From the NCBI RefSeq assembly GCF_044324875.1, contig NZ_CP172185.1: DNA of 64,000 nt, one strand, 5' to 3'. The notes beneath the pieces are model-generated. The model was not told the origin of the DNA. It ran no database searches and worked only from the letters and a program-made list of their open reading frames with translations. Source of the DNA: Escherichia coli (GTDB taxonomy: Bacteria; Pseudomonadota; Gammaproteobacteria; Enterobacterales; Enterobacteriaceae). The position numbers and the translations under genes are program-made. Of the stretch, positions 44,283-48,505 are shown in pieces (the first letter of the stretch is position 1; the number at the start of each line of letters is the position of its first letter).

Positions 44283-45566
44283 ATGACAGAAGCGATGAAG
44301 ATTACCCTCTCTACCCAACCTGCCGACGCGCGCTGGGGAGAAAAAGCGACTTACAGCATTAATAATGATGGCATTACCCTGCATTTGAACGGGGCAGACG
44401 ATCTGGGGCTGATCCAGCGTGCGGCGCGCAAGATTGACGGTCTGGGCATCAAGCATGTTCAGTTAAGCGGTGAAGACTGGGATGCGGATCGCTGCTGGGC
44501 ATTCTGGCAAGGTTACAAAGCCCCGAAAGGCACACGTAAAGTGGAGTGGCCGGATCTGGACGATGCCCAACGGCAGGAACTGGATAACCGCCTGATGATC
44601 ATCGACTGGGTGCGTGACACCATCAACGCACCGGCAGAAGAATTGGGACCATCGCAACTGGCACAGCGTGCTGTTGATCTGATCAGCAACGTCGCGGGCG
44701 ATCGTGTGACTTATCGGATCACCAAAGGTGAAGATCTGCGTGATCAAGGTTATATGGGGCTGCACACGGTCGGACGCGGTTCAGAACGTTCTCCGGTATT
44801 GCTGGCGCTGGATTACAACCCAACTGGCGATAAAGAAGCGCCAGTGTACGCGTGCCTGGTTGGTAAAGGCATCACCTTTGATTCCGGCGGCTACAGCATC
44901 AAACAGACCGCATTTATGGACTCGATGAAGTCGGACATGGGCGGCGCGGCAACGGTTACCGGGGCGCTGGCGTTTGCCATTACGCGCGGACTGAACAAGC
45001 GCGTGAAGCTGTTCCTCTGCTGTGCGGATAACCTGATCAGCGGCAACGCGTTCAAACTGGGCGATATTATTACCTATCGCAACGGTAAAAAAGTTGAAGT
45101 GATGAACACTGATGCGGAAGGGCGTCTGGTGCTGGCCGATGGCCTGATTGATGCCAGTGCGCAGAAACCGGAACTGATCATTGATGCGGCGACCCTCACC
45201 GGGGCGGCGAAAACTGCGCTGGGTAATGATTATCACGCGCTGTTCAGTTTTGACGATGCGCTTGCCGGTCGCTTGCTGGCGAGTGCCGCGCAGGAGAATG
45301 AACCGTTCTGGCGTCTGCCGCTGGCGGAGTTCCACCGCAGCCAGCTGCCGTCTAACTTTGCCGAACTGAACAATACCGGAAGCGCGGCGTACCCGGCAGG
45401 CGCGAGCACGGCGGCGGGCTTCCTGTCGCACTTTGTTGAGAACTATCAGCAAGGCTGGCTGCATATCGACTGCTCGGCGACTTACCGTAAAGCGCCGGTT
45501 GAACAGTGGTCTGCGGGTGCTACGGGACTTGGTGTGCGCACGATTGCTAATCTGTTAACGGCGTAA
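44283..45566 (+). CDS. pepB: aminopeptidase B (M17 leucyl-aminopeptidase family)
   Basis: 427-aa ORF from [15 protein letters not shown]...; M17 motif [12 protein letters not shown]. Confidence 0.93.
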
Positions 45567-45573
45567 ACTAATA

Positions 45574-45673
45574 TGCCGGATGCGGCGTAAACGCCATATC
45601 CGGCCTACAAAGTATTGCAAATTCAACAAATTGTGAATCCCTTGTAGGCCTGATAAGTATGGCGCATCAGGCA
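45574..45673. repeat. BIME: two inverted REP palindromes
   Basis: TGCCGGATGCGGCGTAAACGCCATATCCGGCCTAC and GTAGGCCTGATAAGTATGGCGCATCAGGCAC between pepB and sseB. Confidence 0.85.
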
Positions 45674-45708: not shown

Positions 45709-46485
45709 ATGTCCGAAACAAAAAATGAACTTGAAGACCTGCTGGAAAAAGCAGCAACCGAACCGGCGCACCGCCCGGCCTTTTTCCGTACTCTACTGGA
45801 ATCCACCGTCTGGGTGCCGGGTACGGCGGCGCAGGGCGAGGCTGTGGTTGAAGATAGCGCGCTTGATTTACAGCACTGGGAAAAAGAAGACGGCACCAGC
45901 GTCATTCCTTTTTTTACCTCGTTAGAAGCACTTCAACAGGCGGTTGAAGACGAACAGGCATTTGTCGTAATGCCCGTTCGCACATTGTTTGAGATGACCC
46001 TTGGCGAAACGCTCTTCCTTAATGCCAAACTGCCAACCGGTAAAGAATTTATGCCGCGTGAAATCAGTTTGTTGATTGGTGAAGAAGGAAATCCGCTGAG
46101 CAGCCAGGAAGTACTGGAGGGCGGTGAATCGCTGATATTATCGGAAGTCGCAGAGCCACCAGCACAAATGATTGATTCTCTCACCACCTTATTTAAAACT
46201 ATTAAGCCGGTGAAGCGTGCTTTTATTTGTTCAATTAAAGAGAACGAAGAGTCACAGCCTAATTTACTTATTGGCATTGAAGCCGATGGTGATATCGAAG
46301 AAATTATTCAGGCGGCGGGAAGTGTAGCGACCGATACATTACCTGGCGATGAACCCATCGATATTTGTCAGGTGAAAAAAGGGGAAAAAGGAATTAGCCA
46401 CTTTATTACCGAACATATTGCGCCATTCTATGAACGTCGCTGGGGTGGTTTTTTGCGTGACTTTAAACAGCATCGGATAATCTAA
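45709..46485 (+). CDS. sseB: enhanced serine sensitivity protein SseB
   Basis: 258-aa ORF MSETKNELEDLLEKAATEPAHRPAFF...; synteny between pepB and sseA. Confidence 0.85.
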   Translation: MSETKNELEDLLEKAATEPAHRPAFFRTLLESTVWVPGTAAQGEAVVEDSALDLQHWEKEDGTSVIPFFTSLEALQQAVEDEQAFVVMPVRTLFEMTLGETLFLNAKLPTGKEFMPREISLLIGEEGNPLSSQEVLEGGESLILSEVAEPPAQMIDSLTTLFKTIKPVKRAFICSIKENEESQPNLLIGIEADGDIEEIIQAAGSVATDTLPGDEPIDICQVKKGEKGISHFITEHIAPFYERRWGGFLRDFKQHRII

Positions 46486-46802
46486 AATATGCCGCCCCAA
46501 AGGGCGGCATTCGGGCTTACTTGCTGCTCTGAAGTTTGTTAACCACCAGTAAATTGTTGCCGGAGAGACTCCGGTTATTATTTACCTCGGTTAACAGCGC
46601 ACCAGAAACAATAAGTACGATACAAAAGCACCGTATCTTCATTGTGCGGTCCATGCGAAGACCGCATCACGACAGCACCACTGGCGATATTGCCGCGATA
46701 GCAAGCGCTGAGACGCGCTTGCTCTAACGGTCGCGGAACATCCTTTCCTTAAGCCAGCGCCCGCTTGCGAGACGGCGGAAAGGGCCGCAGTGGATAATAC
46801 AC
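46486..46802 (-). ncRNA. ryfA: RyfA-like RNA copy 1 (putative small-protein toxin mRNA, TimP/RyfA type); 5' end approximate
   Basis: Minus-strand unit between a promoter-like TTGTCA-16-TATTGT (about 46837-46810) and terminator hairpin ATGCCGCCCTTTGGGGCGGCAT plus U-tract (46510-46486); about 310 nt; leader has SD-sequestering CCTTTCC/GGAAAGG stem. Confidence 0.6.
46517..46654 (-). CDS. hypothetical 45-aa small protein with hydrophobic N-terminal segment (candidate type I toxin)
   Basis: ORF MDRTMKIRCFCIVLIVSGALLTEVNNNRSLSGNNLLVVNKLQSSK verified codon by codon; identical in copy 2 except the last residues; no strong Shine-Dalgarno, so start codon uncertain. Confidence 0.35.
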   Translation of the reverse strand: MDRTMKIRCFCIVLIVSGALLTEVNNNRSLSGNNLLVVNKLQSSK

Positions 46803-46865
46803 TAACAGAACAATAATAACTCTCTTTTGCTTGACAAAAAGAGGGTTACTGGCGAGTATTGTCTC

Positions 46866-46962
46866 CGCTGAGACGCGCTTGCATTACTACGGTAATACAA
46901 CCTGCTGGAAAGGCCGCGAACCGGACCAGCAACAAAAAACCGCCTGATTTTGGCGGTTTTTT
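46866..46962 (+). ncRNA. putative sRNA 1, divergent from RyfA-like copy 1 (candidate antitoxin RNA, TimR-like)
   Basis: TTGACA (46831-46836) -17 bp- GAGTAT promoter; about 97 nt to intrinsic terminator AAAAAACCGCC-tgatttt-GGCGGTTTTTT (46935-46962); 5' 17 nt identical to the plus strand at 46706-46722. Confidence 0.5.
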
Positions 46963-47079
46963 GTTGTTTAAAGAAAGTGAATTTACATGTTCAAGTAATA
47001 TCTTTTATTGGTTAGTATTTTTAATATTAAGCGAAAATTGTTTATATTTGTCTGAATTCGGACTAATAAGCTAGGTTAT

Positions 47080-47163
47080 TTTATTACCGAACATATTGCG
47101 CCATTCTATGAACGTCGCTGGGGTGGTTTTTTGCGTGACTTTAAACAGAATGGGATAATTTAA
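47080..47163 (+). pseudogene. duplicated 3' fragment of sseB (about 27 C-terminal codons plus stop), non-functional remnant at the repeat junction
   Basis: TTTATTACCGAACATATTGCGCCATTCTATGAACGTCGCTGGGGTGGTTTTTTGCGTGACTTTAAACAG repeated from 46402-46470, followed by a diverged tail and TAA at 47161-47163. Confidence 0.8.
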
Positions 47164-47480
47164 AACATGCCGCCCCAAAGGGCGGCATTCGGGCTTACCT
47201 GCTGTTCTGAAGGTTGTTAACCACCAGTAAATTGTTGCCGGAGAGACTCCGGTTATTATTTACCTCGGTTAACAGCGCACCAGAAACAATAAGTACGATA
47301 CAAAAGCACCGTATCTTCATTGTGCGGTCCATGCGAAGACCGCATCACGACAGCACCACTGGCGATATTGCCGCGATAGCAAGCGCTGTGAAACACCTGC
47401 ATTTACGGCCATGGAACATCCTTTCCTTAAGCCAGCGCCCGTTTGCGAGACGGCGGAAAGGGCCGGTGTCGATAATACGC
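47164..47480 (-). ncRNA. ryfA: RyfA-like RNA copy 2; 5' end approximate
   Basis: Same architecture as copy 1, shifted by 678 bp; terminator hairpin at 47167-47188; leader diverged from copy 1. Confidence 0.6.
47195..47332 (-). CDS. hypothetical 45-aa small protein, paralogue of the 46517-46654 ORF
   Basis: Same ORF as copy 1 with three C-terminal substitutions (K to N, S to N, K to R); frame and length preserved. Confidence 0.35.
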   Translation of the reverse strand: MDRTMKIRCFCIVLIVSGALLTEVNNNRSLSGNNLLVVNNLQNSR

Positions 47481-47543
47481 TAAATAAACAATGATTACTG
47501 TCTTTCGCTTGACAAAAAGAGAGTTACTGGCGAGTATTGCTTT

Positions 47544-47644
47544 GCTGTGAAGCACCTGCGTTGCTCATGCAACACAAGCCAACCTGCTGGAAAGGCCGCG
47601 AACCAGACCAGCAATAAAAAACCGCCAAATTCGGCGGTTTTTTA
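47544..47644 (+). ncRNA. putative sRNA 2, divergent from RyfA-like copy 2 (candidate cognate antitoxin RNA)
   Basis: TTGACA (47509-47514) -17 bp- GAGTAT promoter; terminator AAAAAACCGCC-aaattc-GGCGGTTTTTT (47616-47645) also serves convergent sseA; 5' region matches the plus strand at 47384-47403 with G-U wobbles. Confidence 0.5.
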
Positions 47645-47659
47645 TTGCCTGTAAAAAGC

Positions 47660-48505
47660 TTATTTCAATGGCTCAACCGGTAAATCTGCCCGTGCGCCCC
47701 ATTCACTCCATGCGCCGTCGTACAGTTTCACGTTTGGCACATCAAGTGTCGCGAGTGCTAACAAAACCACGGCTGCCGTTACACCAGAGCCGCAGCTGAC
47801 GATAATCGGTTTGTCATAGCTGACGCCGCGACCAAAAAATATCGCATCCAGTTCATCGGTCGTTTTTAGTTCGCCTTCGCGCACCAGTTCCGTCCACGGA
47901 ACGTTCAATGCACCGGGAATATGTCCGCGACGTAAACCTGGGCGAGGTTCATCAACTTCTGCGTTAAAACGTGCAGCCGGGCGGGCATCAATAATTTGCG
48001 CCGTATTTTCATGGCTTGCCAATAACACATCGGTGACTTTCACCACGGCTTCAGGATTAAACGTGGCGTTAAACTCTCCTTCCGGCAGCTCTACTGCACC
48101 TTCTTCTAACAGCAGATCATCGCGCTGCCAGCCTGCAAGTCCACCCCCCAGAATCGACACTTTCTCTACACCAAAGGTGCGCAGCATCCACCATGCTCGT
48201 GGGGCTGAGAAAAGATTACCTTCGTCATAGACAATCAGGTGCTTATCCTGGTTAACGCCTAACTCACGCATCGCCACGGCGAACGTTTTCGGGCGCGGCA
48301 GCATGTGCGGAAGCGGGGAAGTGTGATCAGAAAGCGCTTCGATATCAAAAAACACTGCGCCGGGAATATGTCCATTCAGATACTCCTGAGCAACGTTACG
48401 ATCTTCCTGTCCAGGCGACGCCATGCGGGCATCGATAATCTGAATTTCCGGGTCATCAATATGTTCGGCGAGCCAGTCGGCTCCTACAAACCATGTCGTG
48501 GACAT
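47660..48505 (-). CDS. sseA: 3-mercaptopyruvate sulfurtransferase (tandem rhodanese)
   Basis: 281-aa ORF from MSTTWFVGADWLAEHIDDPEIQIIDARM; catalytic Cys motif SCGSGVTA; the six-frame ORF extends upstream to 48664. Confidence 0.9.
   Translation of the reverse strand: MSTTWFVGADWLAEHIDDPEIQIIDARMASPGQEDRNVAQEYLNGHIPGAVFFDIEALSDHTSPLPHMLPRPKTFAVAMRELGVNQDKHLIVYDEGNLFSAPRAWWMLRTFGVEKVSILGGGLAGWQRDDLLLEEGAVELPEGEFNATFNPEAVVKVTDVLLASHENTAQIIDARPAARFNAEVDEPRPGLRRGHIPGALNVPWTELVREGELKTTDELDAIFFGRGVSYDKPIIVSCGSGVTAAVVLLALATLDVPNVKLYDGAWSEWGARADLPVEPLK

Follow-up and report, generated by a model that had tools for sequence, protein, structure and literature searches.

Two predicted timPR type I toxin–antitoxin modules in a probably reshuffled array between sseB and sseA of Escherichia coli

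Introduction

Between sseB and sseA, the Escherichia coli contig NZ_CP172185.1 carries two direct copies of a ryfA-like module, in which an identical core lies next to strongly diverged segments. What do these modules encode, and how did the array arise? We analyzed this interval in a window of 64,000 nucleotides, the whole stretch of DNA to which all positions refer, and compared it with homologous loci. With a probability of about 0.9, the interval consists of two paralogous timPR type I toxin–antitoxin modules, each with its own leader and TimR types, within a polymorphic locus that is reshuffled among one to three modules.

In Salmonella, TimP is toxic upon overexpression and shows Sec-dependent localization to the inner membrane, and repression of timP by TimR has been demonstrated through compensatory mutations and in vitro translation (PMC7667032). 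Control of Salmonella timP follows a pseudoknot and structural-switch mechanism (PMC11228461, PMC13000454). In Shigella dysenteriae, ryfA1 and ryfA2 are arranged in tandem, each with a divergent ryfB (ryfB1 and ryfB2; Fris et al. 2017, PMC5333039), and overproduction of RyfB1 reduced RyfA1 alone (PMC5333039). Tandem ryfA/timP copies are already known, being published as well as annotated by RefSeq in E. coli.

Results

A preliminary description, made from the sequence of the window, had reported a ryfA-like module duplicated between sseB and sseA. A repeat finder applied to the window recovered the second copy as a direct repeat of 300 nt (46402–46701 and 47080–47379) with 98% identity and a spacing of 678 bp. 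A second block (46898–46961 and 47580–47643) had 86% identity and a spacing of 682 bp. In a base-by-base comparison at offset 678, the longest identical run was 175 bp (Table 1), so the core proposed earlier at 46540–46712 was nearly right, but position 46711 is a mismatch. Three substitutions adjoin the core, as had been counted, and the one at 46535 stands; the other two are at 46521 and 46527 rather than at 46519 and 46526. All three are nonsynonymous and fall in the final six timP codons (...NKLQSSK vs ...NNLQNSR), and TimP1 and TimP2 differ in three C-terminal residues. The same comparison placed the other differences at 46471, 46474, 46482, and 46488.

The last 84 nt of sseB (46402–46485) form the opening part of copy 1, and copy 2 starts with an 84-bp duplicate of this 3' end, including the stop codon and with three mismatches. 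This fragment bears out both the copy of about 80 bp and the breakpoint inside sseB that had been put forward. The reported heavy divergence of the leader and divergent-sRNA segments was also found, the diverged parts being the regulatory ones: 11 of 24 positions differ between the copies in 46711–46734, and the 5' part of the divergent sRNA is likewise strongly diverged. Over their whole length, the timP mRNAs of the two modules have 17 differences in 305 positions. The original observation is confirmed, with minor errors in its coordinates.

The repeat is no chance similarity, and it is extremely improbable that a single module was misassembled into two, even though one draft assembly from this lineage (L008) has a contig break within timP2, starting at window-equivalent 47248. 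The copies differ at seven sites of their common block and carry different leader and TimR alleles, an independent NCBI assembly (L007) shows this layout too, with 99.98% identity across 11 kb, and the same junction is present in 156 complete genomes. As a side observation, the repeat troubles short-read assemblers.

Table 1. Positions of annotated and predicted features in the sseB–sseA interval
Feature	Position	Strand	Basis
sseB CDS, 258 aa	45709..46485	+	ORF list; RefSeq annotation of homologous loci
G+C-rich hairpin	46489..46510		Terminator-like site, inverted repeat, 3' end of Rfam ryfA match
timP1 mRNA (RyfA RNA), leader type A	46484..46788	-	RF00126, 313.6 bits, model 1–296
timP1 ORF, 41 aa, MKIRCFCIVLIVSGALLTEVNNNRSLSGNNLLVVNKLQSSK	46517..46642	-	Translation; NF040796, 83.9 bits; annotated timP in homologous locus L001
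Identical core, copy 1 (most of timP ORF and proximal 5'UTR structure)	46536..46710	-	0 differences from copy 2
TimR1 target site, timP1 5'UTR, mRNA nt 67–83, GCAAGCGCGUCUCAGCG	46706..46722	-	Complement of 46866–46882
Back-to-back promoter region, module 1	46810..46862		Prediction only
timR1 (RyfB-like antitoxin sRNA), type A	46864..46966	+	Complementarity, terminator hairpin, fold
AT-rich inter-module spacer, 113 bp, 23% G+C	46967..47079		Sequence comparison
sseB' fragment, last 84 nt of sseB with stop	47080..47163	+	Alignment; partial sseB pseudogene in homologous loci L001 and L004
timP2 mRNA (RyfA RNA), leader type B	47162..47466	-	RF00126, 319.2 bits
timP2 ORF, 41 aa, ...VVNNLQNSR	47195..47320	-	NF040796, 84.2 bits
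Identical core, copy 2	47214..47388	-	0 differences from 46536–46710
TimR2 target site, timP2 5'UTR, GCAGGUGUUUCACAGC	47385..47400	-	Complement of 47544–47559, one G-U
timR2, type B	47541..47648	+	Sequence, inverted repeat, fold
sseA (3-mercaptopyruvate sulfurtransferase), right-hand boundary of array	47660..48505	-	ORF list; RefSeq

Both copies were full-length matches to the Rfam RyfA model RF00126 (positions 1–296), as the name given in the preliminary description had implied, with scores far above the gathering threshold of 80 bits (Table 1). They lie between sseA and sseB, where the K-12 annotation also places ryfA/timP. Both ORFs scored above the 45-bit cut-off of the NCBIfam model NF040796 (toxic_TimP), and the hydrophobic N-terminus MKIRCFCIVLIVSGALL is present in both TimP copies. 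The layout is that of timPR, with a divergent, non-overlapping predicted sRNA upstream of each timP that ends in an intrinsic terminator (46930–46966 for timR1, an inverted repeat; 47611–47648 for timR2). The predicted folds of timR1 and timR2 had energies of -37.5 kcal/mol (z = -4.6) and -40.3 kcal/mol (z = -4.0), respectively, and the K-12 homologue of timR2 is annotated as timR (b4811). The TimR 5' end can pair with the leader over 17 nt without mismatch in module 1 and over 16 nt, including one G-U, in module 2. The position of the TimR1 target agrees with the mapped TimR site of Salmonella (PMC7667032). Neither the toxin–antitoxin identity of the module nor the complementarity between its diverged leader and sRNA segments had been noticed in the preliminary description.

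The hairpin downstream of sseB is predicted to be a terminator common to sseB on the plus strand and timP1 on the minus strand. A consensus scan predicted the timP1 promoter on the minus strand (-35 at 46837–46832, -10 at 46815–46810). Hexamers read from the sequence gave a predicted timR1 promoter on the plus strand (TTGACA at 46831–46836, a 17-nt spacer, GAGTAT at 46854–46859) and a predicted timR2 promoter (TTGACA at 47509–47514, GAGTAT at 47532–47537). The -10 box of timP2 (CATTGT) scored less than the scan required, and all module promoters are at the level of consensus-like matches. The inter-module spacer falls within an Rfam 'IS128' match on the minus strand (46920–47130).

By homology with Salmonella, each module would express from the minus strand a timP mRNA of ~305 nt that encodes a 41-aa inner-membrane toxin, and a TimR sRNA of ~100 nt would be transcribed divergently from the back-to-back promoter region. 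The TimR 5' end would pair with the timP leader ~65–85 nt from its start and break a 5'UTR pseudoknot needed to free the ribosome-binding site, so that toxin translation would be blocked. As the toxin core is identical but leader and TimR are matched within each module, as type A in the first and type B in the second, the main target of each TimR would be its own toxin.

A different role has been suggested by work on the RNA itself: RyfA1 affects ompC and cell-to-cell spread (Fris et al., PMC5333039), ryfA phenotypes of UPEC strain CFT073 were complemented by alleles with a disrupted TimP ORF (PMC8205139), and RyfA and TimR were handled as sRNAs in work on APEC (PMC13188913). The transcripts would then mainly be sibling trans-acting sRNAs with targets that depend on the variable region, the divergent RNAs would be anti-sRNAs, and the ORF would be incidental. 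We consider this unlikely as the main function, as the curated TimP model recognizes two intact ORFs, the ORF and the translation-control structure occupy the most conserved part of the module, and TimP translation, toxicity, and TimR-dependent repression were directly demonstrated in Salmonella. The two roles are compatible with each other, and since the UPEC phenotypes persist with the TimP ORF disrupted (PMC8205139), the RyfA RNA may also be a regulator in its own right.

The predicted specificity of the antitoxins was compared with RNAduplex on site-restricted duplexes; whole-molecule runs produced inflated, gapped duplexes. Cognate energies were -41.7 (A), -39.7 (B), and -36.7 (C) kcal/mol, and non-cognate energies ranged from -8.2 to -30.5 kcal/mol, the latter for type A TimR on the type B leader. 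Leader and TimR types co-varied across 17 loci. The diverged segments are the 5' end of TimR and its predicted binding site in the timP leader, which co-vary in each module, suggesting that the two copies are two type I pairs that are predicted to be mutually orthogonal. Some cross-talk between A and B is possible, as the type B leader and type A TimR still reached -30.5 kcal/mol.

The module types were found in different numbers and orders across genomes. Several loci have one module: it is of type A (as in window copy 1) in E. whittamii, of type C in both Escherichia sp. E1V33 and strain C1 (L006), and of type B (as in window copy 2) in strain Z226-1 (L005). On the basis of match identity, about half of the E. 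coli genomes in a 40-row sample likewise carry type B as their sole module. The order is A-B in the window vs B-A in ST648-type genomes, and three genomes have A-B-C arrays. Together with an orphan type D, types A, B, and C bring the antitoxin specificities observed to at least four. RefSeq annotates timP two or three times, together with a partial sseB, at homologous E. coli loci, and the intact spacer/sseB' junction occurred in 156 of 5,426 complete E. coli genomes.

Approximately 30% of complete E. coli genomes, including K-12, have one timP with a type B leader, and such loci may be products of decay of the array. Coverage of the K-12 junction reached at least 80% in 1,838 genomes, a count in which as many as 156 genomes with several modules are included. 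Such coverage counts overestimate by joining non-colinear pieces, and the approximate numbers were cross-checked against the evenly spaced 40-row sample. At K-12-type loci, timP adjoins an unannotated, non-cognate type A timR copy, and the cognate timR lies ~0.4 kb farther, adjoining sseA.

The sampled outgroups E. whittamii, Escherichia sp. E1V33, Citrobacter, Superficieibacter, Yersinia, Rahnella, and Erwinia all had one ryfA per locus, from which it follows that a duplication occurred within the E. coli/Shigella lineage. This sample came from a search of species-representative genomes with the conserved-hairpin pattern GCGGTCNNNGCANNGACCGCAC, which matched at least 120 stretches, mostly in unrelated Actinobacteria, Burkholderiales, and similar groups; the pattern was too G+C-rich and palindromic, and the usable set comprised 15 enterobacterial loci, without E. 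albertii, E. fergusonii, or Salmonella. Some types may be older than the species, given that A is single in E. whittamii and C is single in Escherichia sp. E1V33.

The 113-bp spacer belongs to each repeat unit, following every non-terminal module in three-module arrays. It was absent after the last module, in single-copy genomes, and in the sampled outgroups. As single-copy loci have no counterpart of the spacer, simple head-to-tail doubling of such a locus does not explain the array. Had 678 bp merely been duplicated in tandem, the spacer should be a decayed sseA 3' fragment; this origin was rejected, since the spacer, at 23% G+C, had no similarity to sseA.

Gene conversion at the locus was supported by direct comparison of strains HCP5S3_I2 and ETEC1738 (the L001/L133 pair), which differed at 10 sites in 2,301 bp and were otherwise identical. 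These differences all fell in one tract (window-equivalent 47125–47268), across which module 2 of ETEC1738 is identical to its own module 1. The earlier suggestion of gene conversion or constraint on the core is therefore upheld for conversion by this single clean tract, and purifying selection alone is insufficient. The core had 6 of 175 differences in E. whittamii and in Escherichia sp. E1V33 and 0–4 of 175 among E. coli modules (BLAST). Purifying selection as the sole reason for core identity was rejected, the divergence of the core resembling that of the flanking genes.

A simple and fairly recent duplication, with the copy nearer sseB as the original and with in-place divergence of leader and sRNA around a constant core, would agree with the junction inside sseB marked by the 84-bp fragment that opens copy 2, and with the single ryfA of all sampled outgroups. 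We regard it as quite improbable. Each of the types A, B, and C is found alone in other genomes or species, the orders A-B, B-A, and A-B-C all exist, and uniform drift after duplication would not yield the jump from 0 of 175 to 11 of 24 differences in adjoining segments. The spacer likewise speaks against it. In addition, TimR terminators and the spacer track position, but leader and TimR 5' parts track type, which indicates recombination between modules. No support was found for an ancestral status of the copy nearer sseB: types are single elsewhere, their order is swapped, three-module arrays exist, and the spacer is in the repeat unit. In any tandem duplication, moreover, neither copy is older.

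Unequal recombination, deletion, and gene conversion would instead rearrange the locus, acting across the near-identical block of ~300 bp that spans the sseB 3' end, the terminator, and the timP core. We tentatively propose, at somewhat less than even odds, that in the E. coli/Shigella spacer one to three timPR cassettes recombine as an array, in place of a single gene that is now and then duplicated, with the core homogenized by conversion and leader/TimR pairs kept distinct by selection.

Discussion

Tandem copies by themselves add little, and the comparative picture is worth more. The diverged parts are the predicted specificity determinants of an RNA antitoxin, which makes the locus a natural series of matched and mismatched leader/antitoxin pairs. 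With A, B, C, orphan D, and the K-12 mosaic, this series would lend itself to work on the evolution of type I antitoxin specificity and the tolerance of cross-talk. The literature searched gave no description of arrays with three modules, of the reversed order, or of the K-12 orphan. Deletions of "ryfA" or "timR" in E. coli would concern one, two, or three toxin genes depending on the strain, along with extra unannotated timR copies.

The modules resemble timPR of Salmonella enterica (PMC7667032, PMC11228461, PMC13000454) in RNA family (RF00126) and toxin family (NF040796). The ORF lies at about +147 of the mRNA here and extends from +145 to +261 in Salmonella, and the 5' end of the divergent antitoxin pairs with the 5'UTR over 16–17 nt here and 18 nt there. 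The Salmonella locus consists of a single module whose toxin has 38 aa, and STM2534 is present as an additional gene between timP and sseA; the window, in contrast, has two modules with two predicted specificities. The pseudoknot and structural switch are the Salmonella mechanism, transferred here by homology.

Other tandem type I loci of E. coli are ldr/rdl, ibs/sib, and zorO-orzO/zorP-orzP, which encode small hydrophobic toxins with neighbouring antisense sRNAs in several near-identical tandem or dispersed copies, and whose antitoxins tell cognate from non-cognate mRNAs. Their toxin and RNA families are unrelated to timPR. The timPR antitoxin is divergent and non-overlapping and targets a pseudoknot-dependent switch, whereas the others act on processed mRNA.

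Among the closest known arrangements is RyfA1/RyfA2 of S. dysenteriae, which has the same locus, the same tandem layout, and a divergent ryfB for each ryfA. The RyfA RNAs there are ~305 nt long and about 95% identical, in line with the 17 of 305 differences here, and both loci have a divergent RNA of ~100 nt with ~17 nt of complementarity across the 'variable region'. The published ryfA2 probe and primer matched exactly at 47381–47405 and 47391–47410, which identifies copy 2 as the RyfA2 allele. The ryfA1 probe, the RT ryfA1 primer, and the RyfB1 primers, which belong to a type C-like allele, had no match in the window within two mismatches. The published oligonucleotides thus ruled out S. dysenteriae as the source of the window, which has the same kind of array with another allele combination: unlike in S. 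dysenteriae, copy 1 carries a third allele, type A. The order also differs, as primer positions suggest that RyfA2 lies beside sseB and RyfA1 beside sseA in S. dysenteriae, but the RyfA2-type copy of the window lies beside sseA.

Tandem timPR modules between sseB and sseA

The window shows the gene order of an Escherichia-type chromosome (pepB, sseB, repeat, sseA, yfhM). The repeat finder returned a direct repeat of 300 nt (46402–46701 vs 47080–47379; 98% identity, 678-bp spacing) and a second block (46898–46961 vs 47580–47643; 86% identity, 682-bp spacing). In a base-by-base comparison at offset 678, the longest identical run was 175 bp (46536–46710), flanked on one side by mismatches at 46471, 46474, 46482, 46488, 46521, 46527 and 46535 and on the other by dense mismatches from 46711 onward (11/24 at 46711–46734). 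Both analyses place a real tandem ryfA-like duplication where the preliminary description had located it; its account of the core and adjacent substitutions also held, apart from three coordinates that were each 1–2 bases out. The Rfam RyfA scan that it called for gave a full-length RF00126 match on each copy (threshold 80 bits). Each of the three core-adjacent substitutions lies within the final six codons of timP and changes an amino acid (...NKLQSSK vs ...NNLQNSR); in TimP, conservation is lower in the C-terminal region than in the N-terminal signal sequence (Andresen et al., PMC7667032).

Features of the sseB–sseA interval (module 1, sseB-proximal; module 2, sseA-side)
Feature	Position	Strand	Remarks
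sseB	45709-46485	+	
RyfA RNA RF00126, copy 1	46484-46788	-	Rfam 313.6 bits, full length
timP1, 41-codon ORF	46517-46642	-	
TTGACA box, module 1	46831-46836	+	weak -10 box 17 nt further on
timR1 intrinsic terminator	46930-46966	+	strong
IS128 RNA RF00125	46920-47130	-	Rfam 210.6 bits, full length
Spacer	46967-47079		113 bp, 23% G+C
Promoter-like site in spacer	47021-47048	+	
sseB' (start of copy 2)	47080-47163		84 nt, duplicates sseB end with stop codon
RyfA RNA RF00126, copy 2	47162-47466	-	Rfam 319.2 bits, full length
timP2, 41-codon ORF	47195-47320	-	
TTGACA box, module 2	47509-47514	+	weak -10 box 17 nt further on
timR2 intrinsic terminator	47611-47648	+	strong
sseA	47660-48505	-	

The second module is not an assembly artefact: the two copies differ in allele, both modules recur in an independent NCBI assembly with 99.98% identity over 11 kb, and among 5,426 complete E. 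coli genomes the intact spacer/sseB' junction occurs in 156. A draft genome of the same lineage (GCA_044153465.1) has a contig starting at window-equivalent 47248, broken inside the timP2 core, so module counts here will tend to come out too low in short-read assemblies.

The feature is a known system, namely tandem timPR (RyfA/RyfB) type I toxin-antitoxin modules. In Shigella dysenteriae, the tandem RyfA1 and RyfA2 share 95% identity, most of their differences lying in a 'variable region', and each ryfA has a divergent ~100-nt ryfB complementary to it over 17 nt (Fris et al., PMC5333039). E. coli genomes with the window's layout carry two timP annotations in RefSeq, together with a partial sseB marked as a pseudogene. 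Copy 2 is an exact match to the published ryfA2 probe and primer, but the window contains no match to the ryfA1 probe or the RyfB1 primers, which rules out the published Shigella strain and indicates a different combination of leader/TimR specificity alleles: type A plus type B here, type B plus type C-like in S. dysenteriae.

Predicted TimR RNAs and leader pairing

The small plus-strand units upstream of each timP are predicted, from their sequence, to be the TimR/RyfB antitoxin sRNAs; these ~100-nt RNAs had fold z-scores of -4.6 (module 1) and -4.0 (module 2). An identical plus-strand 17-mer occurs at 46706–46722 and 46866–46882 (repeat D7), so the minus-strand timP1 leader is perfectly complementary to the TimR1 5' end. 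In module 2, 47385–47400 and 47544–47559 correspond likewise, with one G-U pair. Site-restricted RNAduplex energies were -41.7, -39.7 and -36.7 kcal/mol for cognate A, B and C duplexes, vs -8.2 to -30.5 kcal/mol for non-cognate ones, and leader type and TimR type co-changed across 17 loci. The diverged leader and sRNA segments are matched partners within each module.

Work in Salmonella with compensatory mutations and in vitro translation established that TimR represses timP translation through an 18-nt duplex with the 5'UTR (PMC7667032); TimR binding destabilises a pseudoknot needed for initiation (PMC11228461, PMC13000454). In S. dysenteriae, overproduced RyfB1 lowers RyfA1 but not RyfA2 (PMC5333039). 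By homology, pairing in the window would follow this experimentally established timPR logic, each TimR 5' end pairing with its own timP leader and repressing toxin translation as in Salmonella.

Duplication, recombination and gene conversion

One ryfA per locus was found in all outgroups sampled (type A in E. whittamii, type C in Escherichia sp. E1V33), and the duplication arose within E. coli/Shigella. As proposed earlier, one breakpoint lay inside sseB, as the sseB' fragment shows. The accompanying proposal of an ancestral sseB-proximal copy fails on four counts: each type occurs alone elsewhere and type order is not fixed; TimR terminators and spacer track position whereas leaders and TimR 5' parts track type, which points to recombination between modules; the K-12 locus is a mosaic of type B leader and type A promoter/TimR; and the spacer belongs to the repeat unit, yet nothing corresponds to it beyond the last module or in any single-copy locus.

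Conversion or constraint had been suggested for the identical core. Conversion is directly visible as a tract: over 2,301 bp, HCP5S3_I2 and ETEC1738 differ at just 10 sites, all within window-equivalent 47125–47268, and at every one of them module 2 of ETEC1738 has come to match that strain's module 1, which brings the differences between the two modules in a 309-nt block down from 10 to 0. Purifying selection alone is ruled out as sufficient by core divergence, which is 6/175 in both E. whittamii and E1V33 and 0–4/175 among E. coli modules, about the level of sseB and sseA. The step from 0/175 to 11/24 fits core conversion combined with selection, which we infer, for distinct, internally matched leader/TimR pairs.

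Array architectures in E. coli

Counts of architectures among complete E. coli genomes are approximate, as the similarity tool merges non-colinear pieces into one place: about 3,200 (~59%) have a single module and no spacer, about 1,700 (~31%) are of K-12 type, 392 (~7%) of the type of E. coli isolate 68, and 156 (2.9%) have an intact multi-module junction. Most of the 60 multi-module genomes listed carry an ST648-type junction variant, with order B-A in both typed ones (ST648, EcE.ESBL.COL); three match the window junction closely, and both typed ones are A-B. At least three genomes (GF4-3, MEW and 19KM1831) have three modules in the order A-B-C, with the same AT-rich spacer and an sseB' fragment after each non-terminal module and three timP genes annotated by RefSeq; a pattern search found no TimR after the middle module of GF4-3. 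The two typed single-module genomes are B (Z226-1) and C (strain C1), and, by match identity, a 40-row sample of E. coli genomes included 19 B-like and 4 C-like single-module rows.

In the K-12 type, timP2 has been lost through a 356-bp deletion (window-equivalent 47094–47449) that spared timR2, and module 1 is still followed by the spacer and 14 nt of sseB'. The deletion junction, TTTATTACCGAACA joined to CGGCGG, is common to about 30% of complete E. coli genomes. In MG1655 (NC_000913.3, 2653356–2654158; window-equivalent 46706–46966 and 47450–47648), the leader of the only timP is type B, but the promoter and TimR to which it is joined are type A. The timR directly upstream is thus non-cognate, and it is unannotated; the annotated timR (b4811) is the type B copy, which adjoins sseA and lies about 0.4 kb away from the 5' end of ryfA.

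In the isolate 68 type, module A is accompanied by part of the spacer and by an orphan timR-like unit that represents a fourth type, D; no timP leader matching type D was found in the genome of isolate 68. The orphan unit (about 1190–1330 of the locus; ...GAGTATTGAGTAGACGAGATACACTTGCAGTAATACAACCTG...) carries a TTGACA box of its own, together with the sseA-side terminator.

In the literature searched, which is incomplete, we found no paper on three-module arrays, swapped order or the K-12 orphan timR. What is added to a known system is modest and descriptive: the A+B combination and the polymorphism of the array more widely.

Spacer and neighbouring elements

No sequence similar to the spacer was found in the rest of the window, nor in the single-copy and outgroup loci. 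The RF00125 match corresponds to the inter-module junction, with the spacer flanked by antisense sequence of the timR1 terminator on one side and of sseB' on the other; IS128 RNA may not be an independent sRNA gene. The pepB–sseB spacer (45561–45665) contains REP-like palindromes (inverted repeat I3) and a sub-threshold Rfam naRNA4 match (37.8 bits; threshold 59.5). In E. whittamii (locus L073, 3259–3428), an insertion of ~170 bp, which we take to resemble an ERIC/IRU-type intergenic repeat, separates the stop codon of sseB from the timP terminator.
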